Shown here one piece after another: positions 8,691-57,938 of a stretch of DNA of 64,000 nucleotides. The stretch comes from Candidatus Thorarchaeota archaeon (lineage in GTDB: Archaea; Asgardarchaeota; Thorarchaeia; Thorarchaeales; Thorarchaeaceae): NCBI GenBank assembly GCA_048882325.1, contig JBHLRS010000013.1, positions 7,668-71,667 on the forward strand. Direction: 5' to 3'. How positions within the stretch are numbered: the first letter of the stretch is position 1; each line of letters begins with the position of its first letter. The notes beneath the pieces are model-generated. The model saw only the letters and a program-made list of their open reading frames with translations, had not been told where the DNA came from and searched no databases. The position numbers and the translations under genes are program-made.

Positions 8691-9493
8691 ATACCAACCT
8701 TGAAAATCAGTGCATCGCGTAAGACGCGTTGAAACATTCTCAGGAGATTCTTCCCCTCTGTAGCAATCGTGTCATATACCGGATAGCCCTCAAGGTCAAG
8801 CATCTGCACCATGTAATCAATGGGCAAAGCGTTCGGGAGGTCTCTTTTGTTCAGTGCCACAATGATAGGTAGGGTTGCCATCCTATCTGTACCAAGAGCT
8901 ATCCTCAATTCCTGTATTGAGGCGAGGTTCTCGTTCATCTGCTCTGGAGTAGAGTCAGCCATAAAGATAATACCATCACAATCCCGGAGTACTTTGATTC
9001 TCTGGCTCGCGTGTCGACGCTGTCCAGCAACTGTGAAAACATCAAACACAATTCTCTCACTTGCAGTGACTGGTACAAAATCGAAGAATGTTGTCCGACC
9101 CAGCTCATCATGAATCTCTATGATTTTTCCTTTTGCAAGGGATCGGACATTTCCGAATAGCCATCGTAGTGCAGTGGTCTTCCCTGAGAGAGAAGGTCCG
9201 TAAAATACTATCTTGATGTGAACGCGCCCTTGTTCGTCACGCTTCAAAACATGACCAGGGACAATCTCAGCTGCGCTCTGAGGCTTGATACTAGCGCGCC
9301 GAGCATGTTCTGCTGTAGTTTCAGGATCGAAACTCACATCCTCAGATGAGGCAACAAGTGTTCCCATAGGTTTGGGTTCACCTATCACAGGTTCTTCTAC
9401 AGCAACACTAGGAGAGTCTCTGAACTCAACTGACACTTTTTCTTCCTCTTCCGGCTCCTTTGACCGCCCGGTTAACCTGCGAAACACGGACAA
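8687..9493 (-). CDS. MglA-like small GTPase with about 95-aa disordered N-terminal extension
   Basis: KIVFYGPSLSGKTT (P-loop), GRTTFFDFVPV, TVAGQ (switch II), GIIFMADS and NKRDLPNA closely mirror the bacterial MglA signatures KIVYYGPGLCGKTT / FFDFLPL / TVPGQ / NKRDLPNA. Confidence 0.85.
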   Translation of the reverse strand: MSVFRRLTGRSKEPEEEEKVSVEFRDSPSVAVEEPVIGEPKPMGTLVASSEDVSFDPETTAEHARRASIKPQSAAEIVPGHVLKRDEQGRVHIKIVFYGPSLSGKTTALRWLFGNVRSLAKGKIIEIHDELGRTTFFDFVPVTASERIVFDVFTVAGQRRHASQRIKVLRDCDGIIFMADSTPEQMNENLASIQELRIALGTDRMATLPIIVALNKRDLPNALPIDYMVQMLDLEGYPVYDTIATEGKNLLRMFQRVLRDALIFKVGI

Positions 9494-9594
9494 ACGCCTC
9501 TCCAGAAATTACGGTGCGAATTCTAGTCTTAAATCTTGGGGGGATTGTGTCCGCAGTAGGCTTTATCAAGAGAAAGCCGTTCGAGAGATGCGTT

Positions 9595-10719
9595 ATGACA
9601 GAATTGATTGACCCAGAGTTCATTTCTGAACAATGGCCAACGCTCAAAGAGATGACCTATCTCAATAATGCTTCAACTGGCATTCCACCGTTGGATACAT
9701 TCAATGCTATGAAGAAGCAGCTAGACAATAGAGCGAGAGTCATTGGCAAGTTTGAAGACACACTTGCGTGCTTCAAAGAGATTAGGCAGCATCTTGCAAC
9801 GCTCTTGGGTGGAGACTATAGTCAGTATGCATTCGTTTCAAGTACTAGCGCGGGCATTAACTCCATCGCTCACAGCGTTGATTATCCAACGGGTTCTAAC
9901 GTTGTGATCTGTGATCTGGAATTCCCAGCGAACTATGTACCTTGGCAGCACGCAAGCAAGCTCTATGGATTTGAGCTTAGAGTTGTGAAATCCAAGGATG
10001 GGGCAGTTTCATTGGATGCATTCAAGGAACAAGTTGATGAGAACACAAAGGTGGTAGCTGTGAGTCAGGTGCAGTTTGGAACTGGCTTTAAGGCAGACCT
10101 TGACCAACTTACCAAAATCGCTCATAAGAATTCAGCACTGCTATCTGTTGATATCATCCAAGCTGCTGGATGTCTTGAAACGGATTTAGAGAAAATAGGA
10201 GTGGACTTTGCAGCAGGACAGGCTGCAAAGTGGATGTTGGGACCAATTGGAGCTGGCTATATCTATGTCAGTCAAACAGTAATCGATGAACTCACTCCTA
10301 GATTCATAGGATGGTGGGGTGTAGAGAAACTTATGGAGTTTGAATACTTTGAGAGATCTCCACTTCCTGACGCTCGGAAATTCCAAGTAGGCTCACCTGC
10401 GATGGTCGCGTATGTCGGACTACTTGAGTCACTGAAGACATTGTTGAAGGCCCCTGGTAAGACAAGAGAACGGGTGGCAATGGACAATGCGGATTATCTC
10501 CGAAAACGCTTGGCAGAGATAGATATACCATACTATGAATTCGGTCCAAATCACAATTCAGCCACAGTTTCATGTGAGCCACTGGATGTAGAGAATCTAC
10601 ACAAAGAGCTAATCGAAAACAAGATTCATTGCTCTGTCAGGAATGGTCGGTTACGAATTTCGCCACACTTTTACAACAACCATGATGAGATTGACAGGAT
10701 CATCGAACATCTGAGGTGA
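9595..10719 (+). CDS. Class V aminotransferase-fold PLP enzyme (cysteine desulfurase/selenocysteine lyase-like)
   Basis: Fold-type I class V pattern: AFVSSTSAGIN, DIIQAAG, and putative PLP-Lys in AAKWMLGPIGAGYIYV. The track start 9460 overlaps the convergently... divergently placed GTPase gene, so ATG 9595 (MTELIDPEF) is preferred. Confidence 0.75.
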   Translation: MTELIDPEFISEQWPTLKEMTYLNNASTGIPPLDTFNAMKKQLDNRARVIGKFEDTLACFKEIRQHLATLLGGDYSQYAFVSSTSAGINSIAHSVDYPTGSNVVICDLEFPANYVPWQHASKLYGFELRVVKSKDGAVSLDAFKEQVDENTKVVAVSQVQFGTGFKADLDQLTKIAHKNSALLSVDIIQAAGCLETDLEKIGVDFAAGQAAKWMLGPIGAGYIYVSQTVIDELTPRFIGWWGVEKLMEFEYFERSPLPDARKFQVGSPAMVAYVGLLESLKTLLKAPGKTRERVAMDNADYLRKRLAEIDIPYYEFGPNHNSATVSCEPLDVENLHKELIENKIHCSVRNGRLRISPHFYNNHDEIDRIIEHLR

Positions 10720-12501: not shown

Positions 12502-13485
12502 ATGTATAAAGAATATTTAATACTCGAGCAAACTGGAATGGACGTGGCTGACACCTTGACAACGCAACAGGATGCAGTGCAGACTGCGAAGGCATTCGTG
12601 CCGGGACATGTCACAGGGATCTTTCGTATCTTCGACGAGTATGATGATCCCCTTCGTTGCGGATCTACAGGTGCAGGATTCTCAGTGACCATTGGAACAG
12701 TCACAACTGTGTCTGTGGTGGATCATCCGTCGCTAGAGATCACAACCGAATATAACAAAGAACGAGTAGATGCTAAAGTTACAAAGACGGTGATACAGAG
12801 ATTGACTGAAGAATATGAAAAGACACTCAAGGTGCATGTTGAGCATAATTCTTCTCTTATCTCAGGAGCTGGTTTTGGAGCTTCAGGCGCAGGTGCCCTG
12901 GGAACAGCTCTTGCTCTCGGTCATCTCTTAGACCCAAACATTACCTACAAGAATGCCGCTTCATTCGCACATATTGCAGAGATTGAGAATCACACTGGTC
13001 TTGGTGATGTTCTTGCACAAACCCTTGGTGGTATAGAGGTAAGAGTTATGGCGGGAGGACCGGGTGTAGGGAAGATAAAGAATATCCTCTACCTGGACTC
13101 GCTTCGCGCAGTGCTTGCTGGGTCTTCCGGACTCAAGACAGCTGATGTTTTGACAAATCCTGAAAGCCGAGAACAGATCAATGCAATTGGAGACCATCTG
13201 ATAGAGAGAATTATCGCAGACCCAACGATAGAGACCTTTGTGGAGTCATCGAGAGCATTCTCTAATGAGATAGGTCTGAAGACAAAGAGAGTTGAAGATG
13301 CACTTGAAGAACTTGAAAGAGTAGGATTGATTGACTCTAGCATGGTGATGCTCGGTGACTCAGTGTTCTGTCTTTGTGAAGAGAGTGATGCTTATGTGGC
13401 AGAGAGAATTCTCTCCAAATACTGGAACTCGAATGAAGTATCAGTTTGTGGTATCGCCTTAGAGGGTGGGAGGCTACTCAAATGA
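12502..13485 (+). CDS. Pantoate kinase (archaeal PoK, GHMP kinase superfamily)
   Basis: FVPGHVTGIF N-terminal signature, GHMP motif SGAGFGASGAGALG, and position directly upstream of the phosphopantothenate synthetase gene. Confidence 0.75.
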   Translation: MYKEYLILEQTGMDVADTLTTQQDAVQTAKAFVPGHVTGIFRIFDEYDDPLRCGSTGAGFSVTIGTVTTVSVVDHPSLEITTEYNKERVDAKVTKTVIQRLTEEYEKTLKVHVEHNSSLISGAGFGASGAGALGTALALGHLLDPNITYKNAASFAHIAEIENHTGLGDVLAQTLGGIEVRVMAGGPGVGKIKNILYLDSLRAVLAGSSGLKTADVLTNPESREQINAIGDHLIERIIADPTIETFVESSRAFSNEIGLKTKRVEDALEELERVGLIDSSMVMLGDSVFCLCEESDAYVAERILSKYWNSNEVSVCGIALEGGRLLK

Positions 13486-14294
13486 CTAAGATTGAGATTC
13501 CGCCTAACCATCCACGACGTGTGTCTCTTGAAACCCGTGAAGCAATTATTGAGGGATATGAAGCTAATGTAGTTGCTACGGCTGGTCTTTTGGCACATGG
13601 TCGAGGAGAGGCATTTGACTACTTGATTGGTGAGAAGACAAATGATCGTGCCAAGGACGCGATGAGAGCCGCTGTCGCAGCGATGCTTGCAGCGGATCAT
13701 CCAGTAATCAGTGTGAACGGAAATATTAGCTCTCTAGTTCCTGAGGACTTGGTGGAGCTATCAGAGATTTGCACAGCGCCTCTAGAAATCAATCTATTCT
13801 ACTACAGGAAAGAACGTGAGGATGCCATTAAGGATGCCCTGCTAGCCGCGGGGGCAAAGCAAGTACTAGGCACGCACGACCGTCCTTCTGAGATTATTCC
13901 TGAGTTGAGTAGCAATCGTCGAAAAGTAGATCCTGAAGGAATTGGAGCTGGAGATGTGATTCTGGTTCCGCTTGAAGATGGTGACCGAACAGAGGCGTTG
14001 AAGGCAATTGGTAAGTTTGTCATTACAATAGACCTCAATCCAATGAGCAGGACTGCAGTCTATTCTGACATTACGATTGTTGATAATGTTGTTAGAGCTC
14101 TTCCACTCATGGTAGAGCTAGCCCGAGAAATGAAGCAGCTTCCAAAAGAGGAACTTCGTGGGATTGCAGAAGGCTTTGATAATACTGAGAATCTTGCCAT
14201 GTCAGTACACATAATAATGCAACATCTCGAGGCGAGTGTCAAGAATATTGGCAAATTGAGAGAGAAAATCAAAACCGGAGTTCAGAAAGAATGA
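13482..14294 (+). CDS. Phosphopantothenate synthetase (4-phosphopantoate--beta-alanine ligase, archaeal PPS)
   Basis: IPPNHPRRVSLETRE...GLLAHGRGEAFDYLIGEKT matches the archaeal PPS (COG1701) signature as I recall it. The start ATG overlaps the PoK stop (ATGA). Confidence 0.75.
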   Translation: MTKIEIPPNHPRRVSLETREAIIEGYEANVVATAGLLAHGRGEAFDYLIGEKTNDRAKDAMRAAVAAMLAADHPVISVNGNISSLVPEDLVELSEICTAPLEINLFYYRKEREDAIKDALLAAGAKQVLGTHDRPSEIIPELSSNRRKVDPEGIGAGDVILVPLEDGDRTEALKAIGKFVITIDLNPMSRTAVYSDITIVDNVVRALPLMVELAREMKQLPKEELRGIAEGFDNTENLAMSVHIIMQHLEASVKNIGKLREKIKTGVQKE

Positions 14295-15277
14295 AAATAG
14301 TTGTTGTGGGGTCAGGAGCAATCGGAAGTTTGTACGGTGCATTCCTGAGTAGACTAGAGGAAACCGAGGTCATTCTGGTAGGACGAAACCCTCATGTTTC
14401 AGCCATCCAAAAGAGGGGGCTAACTATCAAAGGCCTTCTTGGTAAACATGTCTTTAAGTTGAAGGCATTGAGGTTTGCGTCTGATGTAGACTATGCAGAC
14501 CTTGTCATACTCACAACAAAGACCTATGATACACTCGCTGCAGCAAAGAGCGCAAAACATCTCATTGACTCTGGTGCCTCAGTGCTCATTATCCAGAACG
14601 GTCTGGGAACGGAAGACCTTGTTGCCAAAGCCCTAAACACAACTAAAGTTCTCAGAGCTACAACCTGTATGGGTGCGCTAAGAACTTCACCCGGAGTTGT
14701 AACTGCTACAGGTTGTGGACTTACAGAGATAGGTTCACGGTATCCAGAGAATTACAAACTTGTCGAGAAACTCACAGAGATGATGCGGAAAGCTGGTTTT
14801 GATGTACGCTCAAGTGACAATATAGAAGGGGTTGTTTGGACAAAGACCCTTGTGAACTGTGGGATTAATCCTGTAGGAGCGCTCACAGGTCTGACTAATG
14901 GCGAGGTTTACAATAACAAGGCGCTTCGAGGACTGATTGTCCGACTGGTAGAGGAAGCGGTTCAAGTCGTCGAAGCGTTGGGTGTAGAACTCACAACTGA
15001 TGATCCTGTTAGATACGCTCTTGGGACTGCAAAGGCGACAGGTGACAACATCAATTCTATGTTACAGGACCTTCAGGCTGGAAAGCGGACCGAGATAGAT
15101 TCGATAACTGGAGAAGTCATTCGACTGGCAAAAGAACTAGGTATAGAAACTCCATCAAGTGAAGCAGTCTACGCATTAGTGAAAGCTCTCGAATCGAAGT
15201 ATATTGAGGGAGGAGAGAGGCTCAGAGAAGAGGACATTCTTGCAGTTGATGACCTTGTTGAGGCAATAACCAGGTGA
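14291..15277 (+). CDS. panE: 2-dehydropantoate 2-reductase (ketopantoate reductase)
   Basis: N-terminal Rossmann motif KIVVVGSGAIGS, central TTKTYD, and C-terminal SMLQDLQAGKRTEID typical of ApbA/PanE. ATGA overlap with the PPS stop. Confidence 0.85.
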   Translation: MKIVVVGSGAIGSLYGAFLSRLEETEVILVGRNPHVSAIQKRGLTIKGLLGKHVFKLKALRFASDVDYADLVILTTKTYDTLAAAKSAKHLIDSGASVLIIQNGLGTEDLVAKALNTTKVLRATTCMGALRTSPGVVTATGCGLTEIGSRYPENYKLVEKLTEMMRKAGFDVRSSDNIEGVVWTKTLVNCGINPVGALTGLTNGEVYNNKALRGLIVRLVEEAVQVVEALGVELTTDDPVRYALGTAKATGDNINSMLQDLQAGKRTEIDSITGEVIRLAKELGIETPSSEAVYALVKALESKYIEGGERLREEDILAVDDLVEAITR

Positions 15278-16524
15278 ATGATTTGATAGAGCACACTTCC
15301 AAGCTCATCAAAGGAAGTCTGAGTAACCTACTCGACGGAAAGAAAATCGCACTTGGTATTACGGGAAGTGTAGGGGCGGTAGAATGCGTTGCCCTAGCAA
15401 GGAAACTGATGCGACATGGAGCAGAAATCATAACAGTGATGAGCCAAATGGCTCAGACTATCATTCATCCCTATCTCATGGAGTGGGCAACAGGCAATCC
15501 CGTCATCACAGAGCTAACAGGTCAGATAGAACATGTAACACTCGCAGGTAAACACAAGGACCACGTAGACCTACTTTTGATCGCGCCATCAACGGCCAAT
15601 ACTATAGGCAAGATTGCAAATGGTATTGATGACACTCCTGTCACTACAACAGCATCTTCAGCCATAGGAGCAGGCATACCAGTCGTCATAGTACCAGCGA
15701 TGCATGAGTCAATGTACGATCATCCTGCGGTCATAGAGAATATCGAGAAGCTAAAAGGAATGGGAATCACAGTTGTTTCTCCACGAATGGAGGAAGCAAA
15801 GGCAAAGATTCCAGCAGTTGATACTATCGTGGACCAAGTGCTAGCAATTCTAGGTCCAAGGGATCTTGATGGAAAACACTTTATTGTCACAGCTGGACCA
15901 ACGAGAGGGTGGATTGATAGAGTTCGGTTCATCACAAATCCATCTACAGGAAAGATGGGAATCGCGATTGCTGAGGAGCTGCTTCGTCGCGGAGCGACGG
16001 TGAGTCTTGTTCTTGGGCCCACATCGGAATCAGGACCTGATCTTGCAGATATTCACAAGGTGGCGACATCTGAGGAGATGCTTCAAGCTGTTTTGTCAGA
16101 ACTTTCTTCTCGAAAGACAGATGGATTTGTTTCTGCTGCGGCTGTTCTTGATTACACTCCTGCAACAAAGGAGGACAGTAAACTAGCGTCAGGTTCAGAG
16201 AGTCTGAGTGTTAAGCTTGTCCCCACCAAAAAGATAATCGAAGAAGCTAGGAGTGCCTACAAGGACCTTTTCATTGTTGGATTCAAGGTTGAGTCGGGGG
16301 TCAGTGACGATGAACTAGCATCCAGAGCGAGAACTAAAATCGACGCTGGAATATGTGATATCGTCGTGGCCAATGATGAACAAAGAAAGGGGGTTGCTTT
16401 TGGCACAGACACCAATGCAGTCATGATTGTTGGTCCTGCTGAATACACAAAGAGTTATGATCTAGCCCCTAAGAGAGAAATAGCTCGTCATATCGTGGAC
16501 GAAATAATCCAGAGGATGACATAA
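15274..16524 (+). CDS. coaBC: Bifunctional phosphopantothenoylcysteine decarboxylase / phosphopantothenate-cysteine ligase
   Basis: Flavoprotein N-domain (KKIALGITGSVGAVE, APSTANTIGKIANGIDD) and CoaB C-domain (FITNPSTGKMG, AAAVLDY, VANDE). GTG start overlaps the panE stop (GTGA). Confidence 0.9.
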   Translation: MNDLIEHTSKLIKGSLSNLLDGKKIALGITGSVGAVECVALARKLMRHGAEIITVMSQMAQTIIHPYLMEWATGNPVITELTGQIEHVTLAGKHKDHVDLLLIAPSTANTIGKIANGIDDTPVTTTASSAIGAGIPVVIVPAMHESMYDHPAVIENIEKLKGMGITVVSPRMEEAKAKIPAVDTIVDQVLAILGPRDLDGKHFIVTAGPTRGWIDRVRFITNPSTGKMGIAIAEELLRRGATVSLVLGPTSESGPDLADIHKVATSEEMLQAVLSELSSRKTDGFVSAAAVLDYTPATKEDSKLASGSESLSVKLVPTKKIIEEARSAYKDLFIVGFKVESGVSDDELASRARTKIDAGICDIVVANDEQRKGVAFGTDTNAVMIVGPAEYTKSYDLAPKREIARHIVDEIIQRMT

Positions 16525-16534
16525 CGCAGGTGAC

Positions 16535-16897
16535 TCAGAGTATCTCCAGAAGTGACTCAGCCATTCGCCGCATATCAACAAAGATGAGCCCTATCTGTGC
16601 ATCCGCTTTTGCGAGGACAAGAAAGAGTGCGTTCTCGCCCACAGAAGTAAGTAAGGTGTATCCGCGATCACTTTTAACATAAATCTCCATGAGGTTGCCT
16701 CGGTCCAATTCGTTTGTGGCCTTCTCTCCCAATGACAACAATGCTGCACTAATTGCTGCAACTCGTTCTTGTTCAGCTTCTGGTAGAGCAGAAGAAATCA
16801 TGAGTCCATCAGCTGACACAAGAGCTGCACCTTCAACACCTGGTACAGTTTCGAAATCACGAATTATTTTGTTGATGCTATCAACACGACTGGACAT
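16535..16897 (-). CDS. Roadblock/LC7 (MglB-like) domain protein
   Basis: VPGVEGAALVSADGLMISSALP...AAISAALLSLGEKA...GYTLLTSVGENALFLVLAKADAQIGLIF is a textbook Roadblock/LC7 pattern. The track start is TTG 16924; ATG 16897 is preferred. Confidence 0.85.
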   Translation of the reverse strand: MSSRVDSINKIIRDFETVPGVEGAALVSADGLMISSALPEAEQERVAAISAALLSLGEKATNELDRGNLMEIYVKSDRGYTLLTSVGENALFLVLAKADAQIGLIFVDMRRMAESLLEIL

Positions 16898-17000
16898 ACT
16901 TGCACCCTCTGGCAATCCGAACAAACGCTAGTCTGTGGCCACTCTATAATAACTTATTGCATTACAGGGATTTGAGGCAATTCATGTTCATTGATATTCA

Positions 17001-20000
17001 CTAGACACCAAAGTACTCTTTGACATCAGATTTGCTGTCCTCTTTCCGTCGCTTGGCTTCCCTCTTTCTCTCATCGGGTGTGCGCTCTCGTTTCCAATCA
17101 ATACTATCGCCGCGCCTCCTGCGCAGGTAGATCCATCCACCAACAACAACAGCTACCACTCCACCTAGGACTCCAAGAATAAGAACTGGGAATGGTCGAA
17201 TGAGGATGAAGTTCTCCAATGTGAGAGTGAGTGTGTCATATCCATTCATATGTCCGAGGATATGCAAGTCTAGCTCACCTAGGTTTGCGCGGGTCCATGC
17301 TGCATCCAAGTTAAGGATATAGTATCCTTCTCCCATTTCAAGAGGTGTGATTCCAGTTGTGTTTAACCAAGCAGAAAGACTGACAGACTCAATATAATTA
17401 CCAACCTGATCAGTGAGCCTAAGGAGAATATCGACTCGATCACCCGCCCAGATAATCTCTTGACTTAATGATATCTCACTCAAGATGATTGATGGTGTAC
17501 TGCTCCAGGAGATAGAATTCTCAAGAGTAGCTACATCACTAGGGAGTGTTGTCGTGAGAGCAACCTTGCCAGATCCCACCGCCCCTGCAACAATGACAGG
17601 ATCTACCCCATCTGTGGCTACGATGGAAAGATTCTCCCAGACTGATGAGAAGTGACCGGAGTAATCTACTGTCGGGCTGAGGGAGTTGGGACTTATCATC
17701 AATGGATGTGTTGCATCCTCAATAGTAATCGATGTTCCAGTTCCACTGGCATCATACGAGATTGGCCATGGGAACCATGGAATGGATTGAGTCACACCAA
17801 AGACTATCAAGACACCACCATCTCTGACATAAGCCTCAAAAGCCCCACTTGAGGAAGAAAGGCTAGAGCTTAGGTCACTCAAGGTATCCGGTTCTACAAT
17901 TACAAGCTGACGCAGCGGTAGGAGTTGAAGGAACTCTGTATAGTTAGAAGACTCGTAGTACTCGTAGCTTGCACCCAAACCAGCCAGACTAGTTGGAAGG
18001 TATGAGGAAACCCCAAGTGCAGCTACAGCTCGAATCCCCTGTCCAGGTTCGTGGGTGTCAAATGGCACATCTGTTGGATCTACTGATGAAACATGAGGAG
18101 AGGTTGCAGGCTCGTATAGTCGAATCGATGGATCACCAAAGAGGACCTGTTGGTTTCCATAGTCACGAGGATCACGACCAACCAGTGGATCGGAATAATC
18201 AGCAGATGTGAGACTAAGACCGATAGAGAGTGCATCGCCAACTGTATTACCCTCGGAGAGCTCTTGAGCCAAAACTACTGAAAGCATACCTGCTGCTTGG
18301 AAGTAAACTGTTCGAGGAGCGGCGGTAACTGCCACGGCTCCATGTTCCATCAACATCAAAGGCATTTCGGTTCCTCCAAGGAGACAGGCTGTGAGAATCA
18401 CAATAGGACTACCGATGTTGCCAATAGATGCTTCCAGTTCATCCGTTGACTTTACAACATGGTTCGATACTTCGGGAAATGCAACTGGATTGACCAGATG
18501 GTTCGAGTCTGTGGGACTTTCTCGAGTGGTTAGACTATCTTCAAATCCATATGGTGCATCTGCGGTTCTCAATGAGATATACCCCACACCATACGGTCTA
18601 TCAGGTGGGTCTCGAGGCAGCTTTGTCAGTGTTCCATGTGTGCTAAGTGACCATAGGGCAATTTGTGAATCAAGAGTGTCAAAGACCTCATTCTGTCCCA
18701 CATGCTGCTCTATGAGAAAACCAGCAGAACCGAGGGCATCAGTAGTGTTATCAAGTTGGACTAACAGATGGGTGTCCAAATTGTTATCCCAGTATATTTC
18801 GCCATCAGTATAGGCATACATACTCACGAGAGCAGTGTCAGCCTCATCGGCCTGAAGGAAGAGAAACCTGTGGAGGAGGCCTCTGTTAATGAGAATAGAA
18901 GTCAAGGCAGGTGTTGTCGCAGGAATTCGCCCTGGACTGAAATGGGATTGAAGTGATCTATCAAAGCTCAGTGGTATTAGAGAAACAGGTGAAACGACAA
19001 CTACAGGCTGATTCATTGTTGTGTTGTAAGCACCACGTGAGATGAGAAACGACTCAAATGATCCCTCTGATTCCATCATTGAGAACTTGTTCGGAATCCT
19101 TTCATCGTACCAACCATTTTCTGCTCGGTTCTCGTACTTGTGAATAACGTAGATGTTGTCGATTTCCGGACCTATCATATATGGGGCCCAGGTTTCTTGT
19201 GCGAGTGTAGTTAGCTCATTTGAGTTCCCACAGAGAGAGAATACTGGACTCCCGTGAGCTGCAGCTGAGAATGCAGCAGGAGCAAAGAATTCGTCCCCAT
19301 CACCTGTAGGAATAGAAACCACAATGTCGTGTGATCCTGAGAGGGACTTAATCATTGAGGTCATTCCAGAATAACTCACAATATTATTGAGAGTCCCATA
19401 TGCAGCAAGTAAAGCAGCTAGTCCTGCGTCTTGATGATTGGTTGGGTCGATAAGATAGACATCCGTAACACCAAGATAGTTGAGAGCCCAAGATGTTTCA
19501 GCTGGGATTGTGTCTTCATAGACATACAATAACGGAGCATTGAGGAGAGAGGCCAAGACAGCAGCATTTGATGCAGACTCCATGTATGTCTGAATATCTG
19601 CATCAATTCTAGAGATTGCCCAAGAAAGCTCGATGTTATTCTGTTCCAGAGTTGCATCCATCCAAGCTGCAATGATAGTCCAATCTCCAGCCTTGGGATA
19701 AGGGAGTTCAATTTCTTCTTGCCCGGGATTTGATAAGATACTTCCAGCAGGGGCCCACATTGCTAGTCTCCCATCTGGGTCGATAAGAGCAAGATTTAGG
19801 TTAGTTGCAGCGTTATCCCAAAGAAGTGATACATTCAACCACTTAGCGTTTGCAGGAACCAATACAGATTGTGTATATCCAGGATGATAGAGAACTTCAT
19901 TATCCATGTTCGTCGTACCACTGATATCACGGGTGAGGTTCATGGTCCAGACCCCATCTGAGGTCTTAGGGAACCAAAAATTCAGAGGAACTGGAGTAAC

Positions 20001-20798
20001 TACATAACCGACTTGTCTTGAGAAAAAGACTTGGTTTATAACAGAATAATCGACTATCACGCCATTTGGATCAATAAGTTCATGTGTCAGTAGCTCATCA
20101 CCGGTCCAATTGAACCTTCCTTCAATCCAACCCGCCCATGCAGGAGGAGTGAAGCTGATGCTCGAAGGAGCGCCATATGTGACAGTTCCACCGAACTCTG
20201 ATAATTCCGAAGCTTGATTTTGAAATGTGTAAGTTGCACTGCCAGTAGTGACTATTGGAGAACCAAACTCATCTTTTAGGAGAGCTACAACTGCAGTTGA
20301 ACTTGACCGCCATTCGTTCATTGCAAGTAGTGAAGCGATCTCAGCAGCGGAACTTCCTCTGATTCGTGGATAGATCTTTGTTCCCAAGTCAAACTGAAGT
20401 TGAGTCAGTTCACTCTCTGTGAAATCACCAACAGCAATTGCCTGTGCAACTCCTCCGTCGGTTTCTAGATACTGAGACCAATCCTCCAAGAGCCAGGATT
20501 CACTCTGTGAGCCCTCACTATAGATGAGGGGTGATATGTACTGGGTGTTGTTATGGTAGAAGATTGATGTCGGGACTGTGGCCATGTATGCAAACTCATC
20601 CATGTATGAATTAGGATCGGGAGCAACGAAAGCAACCCGTGATAGTGGAACTTGATCTGTTGGAACGTCACTCAGAGTGTGACTAGGTGAAATAGAAACA
20701 GTTCCTGAGTTGATGAAAGATTCAGTGATTGGACCCAGTGTTCCTATCATGAGAACTACTAGAAGAATCGAGAGCATCTTTTTCCTAGAATTGGTCAT
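17001..20798 (-). CDS. Large (1265 aa) membrane-anchored surface protein, possible clan CD (gingipain/C25-like) cysteine peptidase domain
   Basis: N-terminal signal/TM (MLSILLVVLMIGTLGP). C-terminal TM (VLILGVLGGVVAVVVGGWIYL) followed by a basic tail RRRRG...KRRKED. The central LWSLSTHGT ... SPIVILTACLLGG resembles the His-Gly / Ala-Cys dyad preceded by hydrophobic strands. The CDS itself is certain; the peptidase call is tentative. Confidence 0.6.
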   Translation of the reverse strand: MTNSRKKMLSILLVVLMIGTLGPITESFINSGTVSISPSHTLSDVPTDQVPLSRVAFVAPDPNSYMDEFAYMATVPTSIFYHNNTQYISPLIYSEGSQSESWLLEDWSQYLETDGGVAQAIAVGDFTESELTQLQFDLGTKIYPRIRGSSAAEIASLLAMNEWRSSSTAVVALLKDEFGSPIVTTGSATYTFQNQASELSEFGGTVTYGAPSSISFTPPAWAGWIEGRFNWTGDELLTHELIDPNGVIVDYSVINQVFFSRQVGYVVTPVPLNFWFPKTSDGVWTMNLTRDISGTTNMDNEVLYHPGYTQSVLVPANAKWLNVSLLWDNAATNLNLALIDPDGRLAMWAPAGSILSNPGQEEIELPYPKAGDWTIIAAWMDATLEQNNIELSWAISRIDADIQTYMESASNAAVLASLLNAPLLYVYEDTIPAETSWALNYLGVTDVYLIDPTNHQDAGLAALLAAYGTLNNIVSYSGMTSMIKSLSGSHDIVVSIPTGDGDEFFAPAAFSAAAHGSPVFSLCGNSNELTTLAQETWAPYMIGPEIDNIYVIHKYENRAENGWYDERIPNKFSMMESEGSFESFLISRGAYNTTMNQPVVVVSPVSLIPLSFDRSLQSHFSPGRIPATTPALTSILINRGLLHRFLFLQADEADTALVSMYAYTDGEIYWDNNLDTHLLVQLDNTTDALGSAGFLIEQHVGQNEVFDTLDSQIALWSLSTHGTLTKLPRDPPDRPYGVGYISLRTADAPYGFEDSLTTRESPTDSNHLVNPVAFPEVSNHVVKSTDELEASIGNIGSPIVILTACLLGGTEMPLMLMEHGAVAVTAAPRTVYFQAAGMLSVVLAQELSEGNTVGDALSIGLSLTSADYSDPLVGRDPRDYGNQQVLFGDPSIRLYEPATSPHVSSVDPTDVPFDTHEPGQGIRAVAALGVSSYLPTSLAGLGASYEYYESSNYTEFLQLLPLRQLVIVEPDTLSDLSSSLSSSSGAFEAYVRDGGVLIVFGVTQSIPWFPWPISYDASGTGTSITIEDATHPLMISPNSLSPTVDYSGHFSSVWENLSIVATDGVDPVIVAGAVGSGKVALTTTLPSDVATLENSISWSSTPSIILSEISLSQEIIWAGDRVDILLRLTDQVGNYIESVSLSAWLNTTGITPLEMGEGYYILNLDAAWTRANLGELDLHILGHMNGYDTLTLTLENFILIRPFPVLILGVLGGVVAVVVGGWIYLRRRRGDSIDWKRERTPDERKREAKRRKEDSKSDVKEYFGV

Positions 20799-21876: not shown

Positions 21877-22578
21877 TTAGCGAGGCATCAGCAAAACTGG
21901 ATTCTCGAGTAGTGGGCGTACTGCATCCTTCACCATAAACTGTTCATCACCCACTTGAACCTCTAGGAGTTTTCTAAGTTCAAACCTGCGAAGATATCCG
22001 ACAGCTTGGTCTCGTTCTAAGTTAAGATCCTTCATCATCTTGCTTAGCCCTTTCTTGTCACCACTGAATTCAGCGAATTTTCCAAAGACTGAACTCCATT
22101 GCATCATTACTAGATACAGCAATGTACGAAGCATGCTGTCAACATTTTCACCAGTCTTTGCTGATACAGGGAAGACTGGGAGTCCTGCAAGAAACCGAAG
22201 GTTCTTTCTTAGTTGGTCAATTGGTCTTGACTCAGGAATATCTTGCTTGTTTGCGGCCACTACACATGGCACACCAGGTAGGAAGAATGCAATCTCCCTG
22301 AAGAATAGCTTTGCTCTAGCATCAGATTCAGGGTCAACTGAATCTACTACAAAGATTATACCATCAGCTCCTTCACTGAGAATCTTTCTCATTGTGCGAA
22401 AACGAAGTAGACCCGGGGTTCCAAACATAAAGACGTTTAACCCATCTACATTTGCTAGACCGTGATCCATAGCTATTGTAGTACCCCTACGTTCAACATT
22501 GATACATTGGCCATTGGTGATATGATGAATCATCTGGCTCTTACCAGCTTCATAGGGACCTGTAACGACTATCTTCAT
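21877..22578 (-). CDS. CvnD-like (COG2229) small GTPase with C-terminal winged-helix-like extension
   Basis: KIVVTGPYEAGKSQ (P-loop), TTIAMDHG, FMFGTPGLLRF (switch II with Leu where Gln is usual) and ANKQD (G4). The track starts at TTG 22617; ATG 22578 sits directly before beta-1. Confidence 0.8.
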   Translation of the reverse strand: MKIVVTGPYEAGKSQMIHHITNGQCINVERRGTTIAMDHGLANVDGLNVFMFGTPGLLRFRTMRKILSEGADGIIFVVDSVDPESDARAKLFFREIAFFLPGVPCVVAANKQDIPESRPIDQLRKNLRFLAGLPVFPVSAKTGENVDSMLRTLLYLVMMQWSSVFGKFAEFSGDKKGLSKMMKDLNLERDQAVGYLRRFELRKLLEVQVGDEQFMVKDAVRPLLENPVLLMPR

Positions 22579-22802
22579 TCGACCACCAAATTCTAACTCC
22601 GAATCAGTGTGTTTCAAGTATTCTGCTGCTCATTATAAGGTTTGTAGTGCTATTATCGGTCTAACAACTTCCGGCGCCACAATGCATGTTTCAGACACTA
22701 ATTTCATTGAATTGCGCAATTTGAGAGAACAGAGTAGGATGGAGACCGGCCGCTCGCAACGGCAGTCCTCAAACTCGGGCCCCAGTGGGATTTCCAATGT
22801 CA

Positions 22803-23837
22803 TCATGGGAACTCGGTCTCAATGAACTGAACATCCTGTGCAAGTTTTGCAGAGGGTGATCCATTAGATTTCACGACTTTGCCTACAGGCCAACAAGGCA
22901 GATTCTTCTCCTCAAGTGTGTTGCAGAACTCCTCGACCTTTGTGGAATCGAGGAACACAAGCATGCCACCGGCGGTTTCAGCACCAAGTCCAGTCGCGAG
23001 CTTATGACCAAAGAACTCTGCAAGCTCGAGTGTGCCACGAATAACAGGAATCCGCTCAATGACCACACTGACATCACTAAGAGAACAGACATTCCCAGCA
23101 TGACCGAGAAGGCCAAACCCTGTGACGTCCGTAGCAGCATTTACCTCAACTGCTCTCATCGTTTCAGCAACCTCCAGATTACTGAAGGTCATTAGTCTAA
23201 CAGCAACATCTTGTATTCGTTTTAGGTCACTCTCTTTGAACTTGGACAAGAGCACATCACGCTTCTCATCTTTGAGGTCTCTATATGATCTCATCGCTGG
23301 TTGAATACCCAATGGTTTAGTCAGAAGAACTGCATCACCTGGTTTGGCTCCATGTGAATAGACGACTTCACTAGGGTGTGCAGAACCCAGAGCTATTCCA
23401 CCAAACACGGGAACTGGATTCCTGATTGTCTGACCACCAGCGAGCTTCGCATCATGCCTTTCCATAAAGGTCTTCATACCTTCGAGGACACCTACAACAA
23501 TATTTTCAGGTAGTTCTATGGGATAAGCAAGAAAAGCCTGAAGCGAGAGAAGTTTCGTGACACCCATAGCAAAGATATCATTGGTCGCATTGCACGCGAC
23601 AATCTCTCCCTGTATCTGAGGGTCATCATGTATCGGTGTGAAGATATCCACATTTTCTACAATAGCCACATCATCGTTGACGATACGGACCACAGCATCG
23701 TCCCCGATTTCCTCGGTTACGCATTCACCTAACGGAAGAAGACCAGCGGTCTGTAGAAGACGAGTGAGATCATCCTGGTTGACCTTGCAGCTTCAGCCAT
23801 GAGAAGTTACCATTGCAGTCAACCGCACTTCATGCAC
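22803..23837 (-). CDS. selD: Selenide, water dikinase (selenophosphate synthetase) with in-frame UGA = selenocysteine
   Basis: The track ORF (22803-23693) starts inside the GDDAVV motif. The same frame continues upstream through TGA (23793-23795): (GTG)HEVRLTAMVTSHG-U-SCKVNQDDLTRLLQTAGLLPLGECVTEEIGDDAVVRIV. This aligns with the SelD N-terminus (E. coli IRLTQYSHGAGCGCKI), with U at the Cys17/Sec position. AGGAGG lies 12 nt upstream of GTG 23837. Confidence 0.85.
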
Positions 23838-23989
23838 CTGGTGACTCAACCTCCTGCATCCTTTAAGGCAAGTTAGCCCAACTCACAACTGGAGGTAGCC
23901 AGTAATAAGATTCTGGGTCAAGCTCACTTCACAAGCCTTATAGCCAGTGTCACGAAGCGATGCGCTATTCTAAGAGAGAGTGATTCGAG

Positions 23990-25435
23990 TTGGATATCAA
24001 GAAGGTCTCGGAAAACATTCATGAAATTCCAAAGAGCACACAAGCGTGCATGAAGGTCCCTGTAAAGGTGTTTGCTTCTGACAAACTCGTGCAGAAGATG
24101 CGTCAGGACAAGACCTTCACTCAGGCAACTAATGCAGCTTGCTTGCCTGGAATCTATAAACATAGCATTGTATTGCCGGACGGACATCAAGGCTATGGAT
24201 TCCCCATTGGTGGTGTTGCAGCTACAGATTATGATTCAGGCGTGATTTCTCCAGGGGGAGTTGGATATGACATCAACTGCGGTGTTCGGGTATTACGGAC
24301 TAATCTGGATGAAAGCGATGTCAGACCGAAGATCAGAGACCTTATCGACAGGCTCTTCGAAGAGGTTCCTACCGGTGTGGGTAAGCAGGGTAAAATAGAC
24401 CTACGCAACCACAGCGGTGTAGATGAGGTTCTAGCAAATGGGGCAACATGGGCTGTGGAACAGGGCTATGGATGGGATGAAGACCTGGACCATCAAGAGG
24501 CCAACGGCAGGCTCGAAATCGCAAATCCTTCTGATGTTCCAGACTCTGCAAAGAATCGAGGCATCAAGCAGAGTGGTACCCTTGGTTCGGGCAATCACTT
24601 TCTTGAGATACAGGTCGTAGATGATATCTACGACGAAGAAGCTGCAAAACGTATGGGTATAACAAGAAAGAAACAGATCATGGTAATGATTCATAGTGGG
24701 TCTCGCGGTCTCGGACATCAAGTGTGCTCTGAATACATCAAGACGATGACCCAAGCTATGAGAAAGTACAACATAGAACTTCCAGATAGAGAACTATGCA
24801 GCGCACCCACTACGTCACCAGAGGGACAGGCTTATCTCGGAGCCATGAGCGCAGCAGCAAACTACGCTTTTGCGAATAGACAGGTCATGATGCACTGGAC
24901 AAGAGAGGTATTTGGAAAGGTTCTAGGTAGTACACCAGAAGACCTGGATATGGGTCTGATTTATGACGTTGCTCACAATATGGGCAAAATCGAGGAGCAC
25001 GAGATAGATGGCAAGAAAACCAAGGTTGTTGTCCACAGAAAGGGTGCTACTCGAGCATTTCCACCGGGACACCCAGATGTGCCTACGAAATATCGAGATA
25101 TCGGACAACCGGTGATTATCCCCGGAACCATGGGTACAGCATCGTACATCCTTATCGGAAACGAGAGAGGGATGGACTTGACGTGGGGGTCAACTGCGCA
25201 TGGGGCTGGTCGCTTCATGAGCCGATCGAAAGCCAAGAAACGTTTCTTTGGAAAAGAAGTTCAACAGGATCTTGCTTCCGAGGGGATTCTTGTGAGGGCA
25301 ACCAAGGGTATCGTAATAGCAGAGGAAGCCCCGGGTGCATACAAAGATGTTGATGAAGTTGTGAAAGTGTCTGATGCAGTTGGAATTGCTACAAAGGCTG
25401 TCAGACTACGACCTATCGGTGTTATCAAAGGTTGA
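23990..25435 (+). CDS. rtcB: RNA-splicing ligase RtcB
   Basis: LPDGHQGYGFPIGGV, GGVGYDINCGVR, GSGNHFLE, HSGSRGLGHQV, and the C-terminal HGAGR and PIGVIKG signatures. Confidence 0.95.
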   Translation: MDIKKVSENIHEIPKSTQACMKVPVKVFASDKLVQKMRQDKTFTQATNAACLPGIYKHSIVLPDGHQGYGFPIGGVAATDYDSGVISPGGVGYDINCGVRVLRTNLDESDVRPKIRDLIDRLFEEVPTGVGKQGKIDLRNHSGVDEVLANGATWAVEQGYGWDEDLDHQEANGRLEIANPSDVPDSAKNRGIKQSGTLGSGNHFLEIQVVDDIYDEEAAKRMGITRKKQIMVMIHSGSRGLGHQVCSEYIKTMTQAMRKYNIELPDRELCSAPTTSPEGQAYLGAMSAAANYAFANRQVMMHWTREVFGKVLGSTPEDLDMGLIYDVAHNMGKIEEHEIDGKKTKVVVHRKGATRAFPPGHPDVPTKYRDIGQPVIIPGTMGTASYILIGNERGMDLTWGSTAHGAGRFMSRSKAKKRFFGKEVQQDLASEGILVRATKGIVIAEEAPGAYKDVDEVVKVSDAVGIATKAVRLRPIGVIKG

Positions 25436-27301: not shown

Positions 27302-29056
27302 CTAGTCTTCTTTCGTTTCTTCCTCAGCTGAGTCAAGCAGTTTATCCAGTTCAGCTAAGGTTTCTCCGTTGAGTGGGAGATATGAATCGTGTTCATCCTC
27401 CTCGTTGACGTCGGTAATTCCAAACCCACCCACAGAGCGATCTAAAGGACCTAGGATAGTCTCTAATTCCTCAAGTGATTCTGCGTCTATCTCTTCGGTT
27501 TCTATGGATTCGTCTGCAACTGGCTTTGTTTCGTCACTCCCGATTGCTTGCAGTGCTGTGTCAATCTCCTCATCGGATGCTTGTTCAATTTCTGCTGCAA
27601 TAATATCATCAAAATCATCAGTTTCGAGGGCTTCAAAGATTATGTCCTTAGCCATTTTAATGGCATCTGTATTCTCTTCGACAACAAGTTCTGGACCAGC
27701 ATCAACAGTTGTTTCTGAAACATCAATCTCGGGCCCCACTGGTTCCGGTTCTGGTATTGGTTCAGGTTCCGAATCAACATCGATTTCAACGGCTATCTCA
27801 TCTCCAATGCCGACCTCATCCACTGAAACCTCAATCTCTTCTTCAACAATGGGTTCTTCGACTTCAGGTGCTTCTTCCTCAACCGCTTCGAGTTCCTCCT
27901 CTTCCTCTTCTTCCTCTACTTCTTCGATTTCTTCTTCTATAATTTCATACTCTTCAAGGTCTTCAATGATTCTACCTTCTTCATCTATATAGACTTCCTC
28001 ATATTCCTCCTCTTCTTCAACTTCAGAAACGGCAGTGGCTGCAGCTGCCTCTTCAGCAGCTAGCTCTTCCATTGCATCAACTTCAGCAATAGCTTCCTCA
28101 GTAGCAGTATCTGTGAATTTTAGGAGCTCAGCAGCGGGAAGATCAGGTAATGCAACTCCTACATATTGAGCAGCCGCGTTCATGAGAATGCGTAGCATCT
28201 CATCTCTACGGTCTTTATCAATAGCGACCATGGGGTAGGTTGGGATTCCAAGAATTTTCTGGACAACTTCTGGTTTCATTGCATTTGGCTTGTCTTGCTT
28301 GTTTGCCATGGCAAAAACAGGAACCTTTGGTGCATCCCTCTTAATCAGCTTCAGAATGTCCTTACTTATAATGACATTTCTCAGCGTTGAATCGCAAACC
28401 AGAAAGATGACATCAGCTCCATGAAAGTAGAATCGCCAGAGCGTTCTGAATCGTTCCTGACCTGCAAAGTCCCACAGAACTAAGGAATAGTTGCCAAACC
28501 GGATGTTTTCGACAGTTTCAAGGTTTAATGCAATTGTTGGTACATACTGAAGTGGTGGCGTATCACCTAGAAGCAGGTGAAGTGTAGTTGTCTTTCCTAC
28601 ACCTCCCTCTCCAACGAGAGCAATCTTGAGCCTAGTTGTCACCGAGGGCTCGATGAGAAATCTATAGTTCTTGATTGCACCTTCAATGCCATCCTTTTTG
28701 AACTTCCTTCGAAGAGCCTTCAAAGCAATATCGATCTTTTCGTAGGTGTTTCCTTCGTCTTCACCTTTATCAGTCACGAAGACAAGAGTTGAGTCTTCAA
28801 TCCAGTCCTTTCCAAGGAATTTGTGGTCACCTATAATCAGGGGTAACTCCTGTACTTGTCCGTGACCAGTTCTGAGTTCCTCTCTTGTTGAGATGAACTC
28901 CATCAGTGCTTCGTTGCTCACTTCTACTGGCCAGTACTGTGTCGATGCGATTATCTGTTGTGTGGAAATGCGGACAAGGAAAGTATTGTGGATCACTTCA
29001 GCATCACCGGATTCATTCACTTCAAGAGGGTAGTACACTAATGCGCTTTTTATCAC
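27302..29056 (-). CDS. Multidomain Arf/Rab-like small GTPase: about 140-aa N-terminal alpha/beta domain + GTPase + about 270-aa acidic disordered tail
   Basis: KIALVGEGGVGKTT, WDFAGQERF, ANKQDKPNA. The C-terminal half is dominated by E/D (EEEEEYEEVYIDEEG..., EEVEEEEEEEELEAVEEE). Confidence 0.85.
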   Translation of the reverse strand: MIKSALVYYPLEVNESGDAEVIHNTFLVRISTQQIIASTQYWPVEVSNEALMEFISTREELRTGHGQVQELPLIIGDHKFLGKDWIEDSTLVFVTDKGEDEGNTYEKIDIALKALRRKFKKDGIEGAIKNYRFLIEPSVTTRLKIALVGEGGVGKTTTLHLLLGDTPPLQYVPTIALNLETVENIRFGNYSLVLWDFAGQERFRTLWRFYFHGADVIFLVCDSTLRNVIISKDILKLIKRDAPKVPVFAMANKQDKPNAMKPEVVQKILGIPTYPMVAIDKDRRDEMLRILMNAAAQYVGVALPDLPAAELLKFTDTATEEAIAEVDAMEELAAEEAAAATAVSEVEEEEEYEEVYIDEEGRIIEDLEEYEIIEEEIEEVEEEEEEEELEAVEEEAPEVEEPIVEEEIEVSVDEVGIGDEIAVEIDVDSEPEPIPEPEPVGPEIDVSETTVDAGPELVVEENTDAIKMAKDIIFEALETDDFDDIIAAEIEQASDEEIDTALQAIGSDETKPVADESIETEEIDAESLEELETILGPLDRSVGGFGITDVNEEDEHDSYLPLNGETLAELDKLLDSAEEETKED

Positions 29057-37367: not shown

Positions 37368-37910
37368 TTAAGAAATTGCTAGCGAATTCTTCGCAAGCAT
37401 GTTGAATGCCTCTTCGACGTTCTGACCATTCAGTGCGCTTGTTTCTAGATATCCGGTGAGATTATGCTCTCGGGTAAACTGTTCACCCATCTCACGAGTA
37501 ATCACCCTATGTTCGATGAGGTCCACTTTGTTTGCTAGAAGAATAATCGGAATCCTTTCGCCTAAAGCATCTTCAGTTTCCTTAATCCACTTTGGTAGTT
37601 CTAACCATGTACTCTTTCGGGTTGTATCGTACACAAGTAAAGCCCCTTTAGATCCTCGATAATAACTACCACGAATGAAATCGAATCTCTGCTGTCCAGC
37701 AAGGTCCCAAACCAAAAGTTTCACAACCACATTACGACCGTTCGCAGCTTCTACTTCTACCGTCTTGACTGCAAATTGTGAACCAATGGTCACGATATAC
37801 TCTTCAGAGAACTTGTGTGTGAGAAATCTGTTGACTAGGGCAGTCTTTCCACTACCGCCAGCGCCAATCATGACGACCTTACGCATGTAGTCAAAGCCAC
37901 CGCTACTCAA
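37368..37910 (-). CDS. Rab/Ras-like small GTPase
   Basis: KVVMIGAGGSGKT (G1), TIGSQF (G2), WDLAGQQRF (G3), ANKVDL (G4), ETSALNG (G5). No C-terminal prenylation motif. Confidence 0.9.
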   Translation of the reverse strand: MSSGGFDYMRKVVMIGAGGSGKTALVNRFLTHKFSEEYIVTIGSQFAVKTVEVEAANGRNVVVKLLVWDLAGQQRFDFIRGSYYRGSKGALLVYDTTRKSTWLELPKWIKETEDALGERIPIILLANKVDLIEHRVITREMGEQFTREHNLTGYLETSALNGQNVEEAFNMLAKNSLAIS

Positions 37911-57918: not shown

Positions 57919-57938
57919 TGTTACTTCGACCTCCAGTT

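Follow-up and report, generated by a model that had tools for sequence, protein, structure and literature searches.

A 64,000-nucleotide stretch of Candidatus Thorarchaeota contig JBHLRS010000013.1 (positions 7,668 to 71,667; hereafter, the window) carries selD, the gene for selenophosphate synthetase (SPS; selenide, water dikinase), which standard open reading frame (ORF) calling has shortened. We are highly confident that this selD is functional and that it encodes a selenoprotein, with the UGA at codon 15 decoded as selenocysteine (Sec). This reading is carried by sequence features, homology, conservation, Sec/Cys pairing, and RNA covariation. An earlier note on this DNA, made from the sequence alone, had proposed Sec decoding at this codon. 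The proposal stands on four lines of evidence, and what the note overlooked is a Sec insertion sequence (SECIS)-like recoding element at the 3' end of the gene. Coordinates throughout are window positions, and both selD and its 3' element lie on the minus strand.

The full-length selD gene and its in-frame UGA

Full-length selD occupies positions 22803 to 23837. Its 344 sense codons (23837 to 22806), among them the UGA at codon 15 that we read as Sec, are followed by a TGA stop at 22805-22803, and a second in-frame TGA comes immediately afterward (22802-22800). The ORF obtained by standard calling encodes only 296 amino acids (22803 to 23693). It starts at an internal GTG within the sequence EEIGDDAV/VRIVNDD (the slash marks the start) and is without the catalytic N-terminal loop. 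When the same frame is read 5' of this ORF, exactly one stop is crossed, the TGA at 23795-23793, with HEVRLTAMVTSHG before it and SCKVNQDDLTRLLQ after it (in a longer form of the translation, VHEVRLTAMVTSHG and SCKVNQDDLTRLLQTAGLLPLGECVTEEIGDDAVV). The frame then leads to a GTG start codon at 23835 to 23837. A Shine-Dalgarno-like AGGAGG (23850 to 23855) precedes this GTG, with 12 nt separating the two. All of these coordinates had been given correctly in the earlier note, which placed the called start inside the GDDAVV motif, one in-frame TGA upstream of it, and a 344-codon gene starting at GTG 23837 with AGGAGG 12 nt upstream.

To characterize conservation at the locus, we used 23 orthologous loci (L001 to L023) from a scan of species-representative genomes, with 65 to 86% protein identity to the window's SelD. 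All of them belong to Thorarchaeota/Promethearchaeota or to uncultured-archaeon metagenome-assembled genomes, and the nearest is 86% identical in protein. Alignments and counts for this Thorarchaeota set comprise 24 sequences, and the N terminus is included in 22 of the orthologous loci. Wherever the N terminus is included, the start is the same GTG, and GGAGG is kept 10 to 12 nt 5' of it among the orthologs. In eight orthologs, an in-frame stop lies 0 to 3 codons upstream of the GTG, which is therefore the first possible start in those loci.

The in-frame UGA (23793 to 23795) is the predicted Sec codon for residue 15, in the motif H-G-U-S-C-K. TGA is found at this codon in all 22 orthologs with an N terminus, in the context [ST]HG-TGA-SCK (SVK in one of them), and the peptide VRLTAMVT[ST]HG-U-SCKV is conserved across them. 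The DNA changes 5' of the TGA are mostly synonymous ones in third positions (GTG/GTA, CGG/CGA/CGT, TTG/CTG/CTC/CTA, ACT/ACA, CAT/CAC, and GGC/GGA/GGT), a pattern that, as far as sequence can tell, marks the region as translated. Three residues past the predicted Sec, an AAG codon (23784 to 23786) encodes Lys18, which is invariant among all orthologs. By alignment, we take Lys18 to be the equivalent of Lys20 of Escherichia coli SelD, whose catalytic role is established knowledge. Likewise, the U position is that of the catalytic Cys17 of the E. coli enzyme, as is well established for the family.

Homology also supports the N-terminal extension. In profile searches with U written as C, the 344-amino-acid protein scored 301.4 bits against NF010705, the NCBIfam equivalog for archaeal SelD and the best of the NCBIfam models (cutoff, 291), matching profile positions 4 to 344 of 345. 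Its score against TIGR00476 (cutoff, 125) was 219.5 bits. The called 296-amino-acid ORF matched NF010705 only from profile position 53 onward and, with 267.4 bits, fell under the cutoff, so that the equivalog threshold is passed only when the extension is included. This bears out the claim of the earlier note that selD had been shortened by standard ORF calling. The 48 N-terminal residues alone matched SelD profile positions 4 to 49 (E = 3.5e-5). Because the extension has a profile match of its own, raises the score from 267.4 to 301.4 bits, and contains the TGA in 22 of 22 loci, it is not a chance reading of the upstream frame.

The best matches among solved structures were human SEPHS1, Leishmania SPS, Aquifex SelD, and E. 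coli SelD, with alignments covering residues 2 to 331. Human SEPHS1, a paralog with Thr at the Sec position, aligned over residues 4 to 331 (E = 5e-40). In these alignments, the U column pairs with the Cys of LKGCSCKL in Leishmania SPS (5l16) and with the Thr of LKGTGCKV in human SEPHS1. The glycine-rich loop SHG-U-SCK has the Sec/Cys position and, three residues later, the Lys that define the SelD family. The Asp motifs GDDA, DxFTPxxDDP, NxxxD, and ATDVTGFG are also conserved, as judged by alignment to human SEPHS1, and the window ORF (P0001) is annotated with the PurM-like AIRS domains PF00586 and PF02769 (AIRS_C). In characterized SelD enzymes, the glycine-rich N-terminal loop is where selenide binds, and it participates in transferring the phosphoryl group from ATP.

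The shortened gene model is not peculiar to this genome. Most of the 120 database homologs listed (P0001 to P0120) are likewise truncated at the N terminus, mostly to 296 amino acids, including NCBI records named "selenide, water dikinase SelD." Databases thus misannotate SelD systematically by truncating its N terminus. Among these 120 matches, those nearest to the window protein come from Thorarchaeota.

In two full-length relatives, the U position is occupied by Cys. One of them (P0048, locus L105) reads RHGCSCKV, with the codon TGT at L105:637-639; the other (P0084, locus L104) reads SHGCSCKV, with the codon TGC. Together with these proteins, the predicted SelD of the window makes up a classical Sec/Cys pair. 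The earlier note had placed the UGA at the Cys17/Sec position and had called for alignment with Sec- and Cys-containing SelD; the placement agrees with the SPS structure alignments, in which the U column is Cys in the Leishmania enzyme, with the TGT and TGC codons of P0048 and P0084, and with the TGA at all 22 loci. TGA is also the commonest stop in the window, where it ends 22 of 44 Pfam-supported genes; the genetic code is therefore standard and not reassigned.

A covarying SECIS-like RNA at the 3' end of selD

The 185-nt spacer past selD opens with a strongly conserved segment. RNAalifold, covariation, and a covariance model (R1) built from the alignment of the Thorarchaeota set delimit a 79-nt SECIS-like element at 22742 to 22820, a type II structure with a kink-turn and a three-way junction. 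The element begins 15 nt before the selD stop codon, covers the last five codons and the stop, and reaches 61 nt into the 3' untranslated region (UTR), about 990 nt past the Sec codon. We aligned the 24 sequences with MAFFT (alignment A1) and folded them with RNAalifold without prior input. The consensus contained four helices (a lower stem, a UCC/GGA stem, an upper stem, and a side hairpin), with compensatory changes in 12 of 18 pairs.

The lower stem and the core overlap the coding sequence. The 5' strand of the 7-bp lower stem, GAGACCG (22814 to 22820), comprises the Glu-Thr-Glu codons of the C-terminal IETEFP and pairs with CGGUCUC (22742 to 22748), as seen in both the RNAalifold structure and pair counts; 99.4% of cells are paired, and three of the seven pairs have compensatory changes. 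Next comes a 3-bp canonical kink-turn stem, in which UCC (22808 to 22810) pairs with GGA (22766 to 22768), again by RNAalifold and pair counts, with 98.6% of cells paired and one compensatory change (U-A in L020). The layout continues with a 3-nt bulge, CAU (22805-22807), after UCC, the AUGA of the core (22803 to 22806), and the 3' GA of the core (22769 to 22770). [A/G]UGA is invariant across the 24 sequences, as is GAG on the 3' side. The GA of AUGA and the 3' GA are predicted, by analogy to known kink-turns and SECIS elements, to form tandem sheared G.A/A.G pairs. A canonical stem, a 3-nt bulge, and tandem G.A/A.G pairs are the layout of a kink-turn. The UGA of the core (22805-22803) is the actual selD stop codon, and this is why the stop is TGA in 24 of 24 sequences of the Thorarchaeota set, compared to 22 of 44 among window genes.

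The 5' strand of the upper stem, GACAUUGG (22794 to 22801; one bulged A), pairs with CCGAGUU (22772 to 22778), as supported by ortholog folds and pair counts. All seven aligned pairs change on both sides among the orthologs, and the sequences of this stem are wholly different between lineages yet remain complementary. When orthologs were folded separately, an upper stem of 6 to 8 bp appeared at the same place in 19 of 24. The stem is capped by an unpaired AAA (22791 to 22793), of which two A's are invariant and the third nearly so. Beyond it lies an apical ministem, UCCC/GGGG with the loop ACU (22780 to 22790), which is a type II feature seen in the window fold and in ortholog folds; a ministem of 2 to 4 bp with a loop of 3 to 4 nt was present in 19 of the 24 separate folds. 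Finally, a side hairpin, GCCGU-UGCGA-GCGGC (22749 to 22763), stands between the core and the lower stem. Its four pairs are formed in 97.9% of cells, and all four have compensatory changes.

With the structure written out explicitly as 23 pairs, 90.6% of cells were paired, compared to 29 to 44% when the 3' partners were slid by one to three columns. Changes on both sides are seen in 16 of the 23 pairs, and in 500 shuffles, not one reached any of the five measures. The minimum free energy (MFE) fold of an isolated 86-nt stretch was the same three-way junction. In a plain MFE fold of the 188-nt intergenic region, stability was no better than that of shuffles (z = 0.55), and GGACUG was paired with CGGUCU. 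We rejected this rival lower helix: its six extra pairs have no compensatory changes, and each pair is broken in four to seven sequences. Searching the 64-kb window with R1 returned the selD element as the single significant match (83.6 bits, E = 4e-24). There was no second copy of the selD SECIS in the window, where the next R1 match (12.1 bits, E = 0.23) was at chance level.

We compared the element with the numeric type II model published by Huang et al. for Asgard archaea (PMC11227280). That model specifies an upper stem of 7 to 15 bp with at most two mismatches, a bulge of 4 to 12 nt with unpaired adenines, a ministem of 2 to 8 bp with a loop of 2 to 6 nt, a core of 5'-GA_[G/A]A-3' after AU or GU, and a position between -30 and +600 nt from the 3' end of the gene. 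In the window, the core consists of AUGA (22806-22803) and GA (22770-22769). The upper stem has seven standard pairs plus a U.U, and its bulged A deviates slightly from the model as written. A 4-nt bulge is formed by AAA (5' side) and C (3' side), the ministem has 4 bp and a 3-nt loop, and the element extends from 15 nt before the stop to 61 nt after it. The element thus agrees with this type II eSECIS-like model on every numeric point. No euryarchaeal GAA_A bulge was found by inspection of the covariation-supported structure, with no dedicated model run, and the only GC-rich hairpin, at 22749-22763, is without one. A bacterial-type SECIS, which is a SelB-binding hairpin placed some 10 to 20 nt or less after the UGA, had no Rfam match in 22400-24000 at E values up to 10, a result from the Rfam models with no separate fold made.

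The two Cys-containing orthologs differ in their 3' regions. Locus L104, with TGC at the Sec position and a TAG stop, is without a SECIS-like element (L104:2541-2960). In L105, which has TGT and a TGA stop, the element is kept (L105:1610-1702; 56.3 bits), and two positions of its lower stem are mismatched. From its sequence, L105 looks like a recent Sec-to-Cys conversion in which the SECIS has not yet decayed. L104 and L105 together look like two stages of such conversion; two loci are too few for statistics, and the pattern is as expected.

Related elements were found outside the Thorarchaeota set. We fetched 80 Lokiarchaeia-type selD loci (L024 to L103) from metagenomes, using a query protein clearly diverged from that of the window. 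TGA stands at the Sec codon in all 33 loci with an N terminus that were examined. All 33 use TAA or TAG to end selD, and a gap of a few nucleotides separates this stop from the SECIS, with no overlap. The order of parts in the 3' UTR is lower stem, AUGA, upper stem, AAA, ministem, GA, and a side hairpin abutting the lower stem; the hairpin has the loop UGC[A/G]A and occupies the same place as in the window. R1, although derived from the Thorarchaeota set, detected Lokiarchaeia elements with E values down to 2e-6, and RNAalifold on 20 of them gave the same four helices, with compensatory changes in 13 of 20 pairs. The upstream tandem selD paralog of Lokiarchaeia has its own SECIS-like element, including the side hairpin. 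Such upstream elements were located at L027:353-441, L044:359-449, L053:347-431, L057:337-421, and L059:337-421, as well as at L068:123-215, L072:124-216, and L094:121-208, where they trail the C terminus of the paralog (ETAGGMLLSVD and, at the very end, VSKNVEHVEITEI followed by a stop). Since an element follows each paralog, these loci contain two selD genes in head-to-tail order, both furnished with a SECIS.

It is possible, if rather doubtful, that the SECIS of Asgard selD is in general a three-way junction whose core is a textbook kink-turn at the junction, rather than a two-stem type II hairpin. The side hairpin could provide a binding site specific to selD, for instance that of an archaeal SECIS-binding factor, or it could serve feedback control of the very selenoprotein that is needed for making all others.

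Decoding of the UGA, alternative explanations, and genomic context

By analogy to known Sec systems, recoding at this locus would proceed as follows. Translation would start at GTG 23837. The UGA at codon 15 (23795-23793) would be read as Sec by means of Sec-tRNA(Sec), delivered by a Sec-specific elongation factor, under the direction of the SECIS-like RNA (22820-22742) located roughly 990 nt downstream on the same mRNA. The terminal UGA, being part of the AUGA core, is probably too near the SECIS for recoding, and translation would hence end there. Sec15 and Lys18 would be placed in the glycine-rich N-terminal loop, and the predicted 344-amino-acid enzyme would make selenophosphate for Sec synthesis. 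In this scheme, we infer the Sec insertion itself, the identity of the SECIS-binding factor, and the reason that the terminal UGA escapes recoding.

Several observations weigh against Sec decoding. In the literature, Sec insertion has not been shown experimentally in any Asgard archaeon, Sec having been demonstrated only in methanogens so far, and no SECIS-binding protein is known for archaea, with SBP2 absent from Asgard genomes. In the 64-kb window, there was no tRNA-Sec (ARAGORN and Rfam returned tRNA-Gln only), and Pfam scans of 60 window ORFs revealed no EFSec, PSTK, or SepSecS. A scan of the window for same-frame ORF pairs split by one TGA found no second selenoprotein gene. The upper stem of the element contains a bulged A and a U.U pair next to the core. 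In addition, Rfam searches of 22400-24000 with E values up to 10 matched no SECIS family, either eukaryotic (SECIS_1) or bacterial, and an Rfam scan of the whole window at gathering thresholds gave no SECIS, tRNA-Sec, or other relevant family. The Rfam result is in line with the published observation that Asgard genes give no hits with SECISearch3 (PMC11227280). The window element would be eukaryote-like in its working, yet it goes unscored by the Rfam SECIS_1 family (RF00031).

Candidates for Sec-related genes in the window were rejected. An EF-Tu-domain protein (604-2871) is of the EF-2/EF-G type and not EFSec, and a class V aminotransferase (9460-10719, plus strand) is not SepSecS. Three ORF pairs from the scan for split selenoprotein genes proved to be separate neighbors: a tRNA nucleotidyltransferase-domain protein and a histone-deacetylase-family protein (43044-44531 and 44538-45611, plus strand), an unassigned protein and an ABC ATPase (38388-38915 and 38919-39596, plus strand), and a methyltransferase and a DUF1129 protein (3408-4187 and 3003-3407, minus strand). 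The aminotransferase, about 13 kb from selD, is of the NifS/cysteine desulfurase/selenocysteine lyase type, a class whose members are able to supply SelD with selenide. Scans for tRNAs in the 23 orthologous loci also found nothing. The Sec machinery and further mis-called selenoprotein genes, both implied in the earlier note, would lie elsewhere in the genome, as suggested by the selD gene itself and by the literature on Thorarchaeia, 77.4% of whose sequenced members meet the criteria for Sec use. The gene probably marks the organism as a Sec user.

Other explanations of the in-frame TGA must be weighed against a selD that encodes a selenoprotein. If the TGA were a real stop, selD would be 5' truncated or pseudogenized, and either the 296-amino-acid ORF from GTG 23693 or nothing would be made. 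That shorter product is what standard ORF calling yields and what public databases mostly hold, and no Sec machinery was seen in the window. However, it would start within GDDAVV, without the loop that bears the catalytic Sec/Cys and Lys, and it scores under the SelD cutoff. The 14 codons 5' of the TGA, the GTG, and GGAGG are conserved in 22 orthologs down to 65% identity, the mostly third-position changes are not expected of untranslated or decaying sequence, and a covarying SECIS-like RNA accompanies the gene; we therefore regard a real stop as very unlikely. A sequencing or assembly error in an ordinary Cys-containing SelD is scarcely conceivable. TGA is one base from TGT and TGC, and Cys forms do occur among orthologs, but the same TGA is present in 22 independently assembled genomes, dozens of published Thorarchaeia SelD proteins are labeled as Sec containing (PMC11227280), and the window has the SECIS element that is missing from one Cys ortholog.

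The UGA could also be read through with insertion of Cys, Trp, or Gly by a suppressor tRNA or a near-cognate one, or under a reassigned code. Some Asgard lineages are reported to recode stop codons in ways other than Sec (PMC9723677), and the window holds no direct proof of tRNA-Sec. Yet TGA serves as a normal stop in half of the Pfam-supported window genes (22 of 44), a conserved in-frame TGA occurs in selD only, exactly at the Sec/Cys position of its homologs, and a SECIS-like element with the AUGA/GA core and AAA is present, which makes this explanation highly improbable. It is also conceivable that the conserved 3' RNA is something other than a SECIS, such as a transcript-end, stability, or regulatory structure or a kink-turn bound by L7Ae, and that Sec insertion is directed in another way. 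No experimental test of any Asgard SECIS has been reported, Rfam SECIS models do not match, the side hairpin falls outside published SECIS models, and one Cys ortholog retains the element. Against this, the RNA has an AUGA_GA core, an upper stem of suitable length, unpaired adenines, and a ministem at the defining place, and fits the Asgard type II model. The same architecture trails both Lokiarchaeia selD paralogs and is absent from the Cys ortholog L104, and no bacterial-type hairpin model matches beside the UGA. We consider a role other than SECIS unlikely. For selD as a selenoprotein gene, the practical value of these results is annotation: the coding sequence is 23837..22803 (minus strand), with a transl_except for Sec at 23795..23793.

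Upstream of selD and divergent from it is rtcB, which encodes a tRNA-splicing ligase (23990-25435, plus strand), with 152 nt between the two start codons. Downstream of selD on the same strand is a gene for an Arf/Ras-like small GTPase (21877-22617, minus strand), with a TATA-like TTATAA about 20 nt 5' of its TTG start. A GTPase gene is likewise found downstream of selD at both Cys-form loci (L104:2945-3646 and L105:1895-2605), in conserved synteny with the window. Eukaryote-signature genes of the kind typical of Asgard archaea include four GTPases of the Arf/Ras/Roc type (8687-9493, 21877-22617, 27302-29056, and 37368-37910), a Roadblock/LC7 protein (16535-16924), two TRAPP-domain proteins (54574-55047 and 57415-58005), and a V4R protein (53951-54505). 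This richness in eukaryote-signature proteins fits the assignment of the window to Thorarchaeota. Four consecutive genes at 12502-16524 (plus strand) resemble an archaeal coenzyme A pathway cluster; they encode a GHMP-family kinase (possibly pantoate kinase), a PPS_PS phosphopantothenate/pantothenate synthetase, an ApbA/PanE ketopantoate reductase, and a Dfp-type flavoprotein. A 1,265-amino-acid ORF at 17001-20798 (minus strand) had no Pfam match at E ≤ 1e-5.

Comparison with known Sec-containing SelD systems

Sec-containing SelD with an in-frame UGA has already been catalogued for Thorarchaeia, and the locus is one more instance, nothing categorically new (PMC11227280). In a survey of more than 400 Asgard genomes, Huang, Xiao, and Zhang (2024, ISME J) found SelD to be a selenoprotein in over 90% of Sec-using Asgard archaea (PMC11227280). 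The selD genes of Thorarchaeia were mostly associated with eSECIS-like elements of type II, in which the core was often GUGA_GA, together with the adenines [U/A][A/G]AA, and lower stems of the form G[A/U]G_C[U/A]C. The window shares with them the protein motif RLTAMVT[ST]HG-U-SCKV, a type II element with a ministem, the [A/G]UGA_GA core, and the lower stem G[A/U]G_C[U/A]C, and its AAA (22791-22793) matches the published adenines. Sixty-four sequences in the data set of that survey contain RLTAMVT..HGXSCK, and the matches listed are Thorarchaeia entries labeled _U. The set includes AB_25 (GCA_001940705), which is locus L003 in our ortholog set. The exact SelD of the window was not found in that set, in which the peptide VRIVNDDVAIVENVD had no matches and only close relatives were found. 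The earlier note was right that the trait is not unprecedented, dozens of Sec-containing SelD sequences having been published for this very clade. The note pointed to Lokiarchaeota; the closest relatives are instead Thorarchaeota/Thorarchaeia.

For Lokiarchaeota, Mariotti et al. (2016, MBE) described Sec-containing SPS with a eukaryote-like kink-turn element, the "lokiSECIS," which has an extra apical stem (PMC4989117). UGA stops are frequent in the selenoprotein genes of Lokiarchaeota, and in one case AUGA doubles as the stop codon (PMC4989117). As in the window, the in-frame UGA of SPS stands at the homologous Sec position and the SECIS has a kink-turn; in the Lokiarchaeia-like loci that we fetched, the overall architecture recurs, side hairpin included. 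Lokiarchaeia-like selD differs from that of the window in that its protein is diverged (e.g., KIHG-U-SCKLG) and that two tandem paralogs are often present instead of one. The texts of the two surveys (PMC11227280 and PMC4989117) do not mention the side hairpin or the junction, their figures and RNA supplements being outside this comparison. The side hairpin is possibly the only new detail here, and its novelty is uncertain. Together with the clean covariation of the kink-turn three-way junction, it could guide a search for the archaeal SECIS-binding protein.

Among other archaea, SelD of Methanococcales and Methanopyrus (e.g., Methanocaldococcus jannaschii) resembles that of the window in having Sec at the same position and a SECIS in the 3' UTR; the M. 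jannaschii protein is given as KLHG-U-ACK in a published data set (PMC11227280). The canonical euryarchaeal SECIS, in contrast, consists of two stems in a simple hairpin, with a GAA_A bulge between them and a GC-rich upper stem, whereas the window element has a kink-turn core. In eukaryotes, SEPHS2 is likewise a selenoprotein homologous to SelD, and its Sec occupies the equivalent position. Features common to the window element and the type II SECIS of eukaryotes are the AUGA...AA...GA layout, the apical ministem, the location in the 3' UTR, and action over a long distance from the UGA. Compared to eukaryotic SECIS elements, the one in the window has a shorter upper stem, a lower stem within the coding sequence, a core that overlaps the stop codon, and an extra side hairpin. 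Asgard SelD with its eukaryote-like SECIS has been discussed as a bridge between archaeal and eukaryotic Sec decoding.

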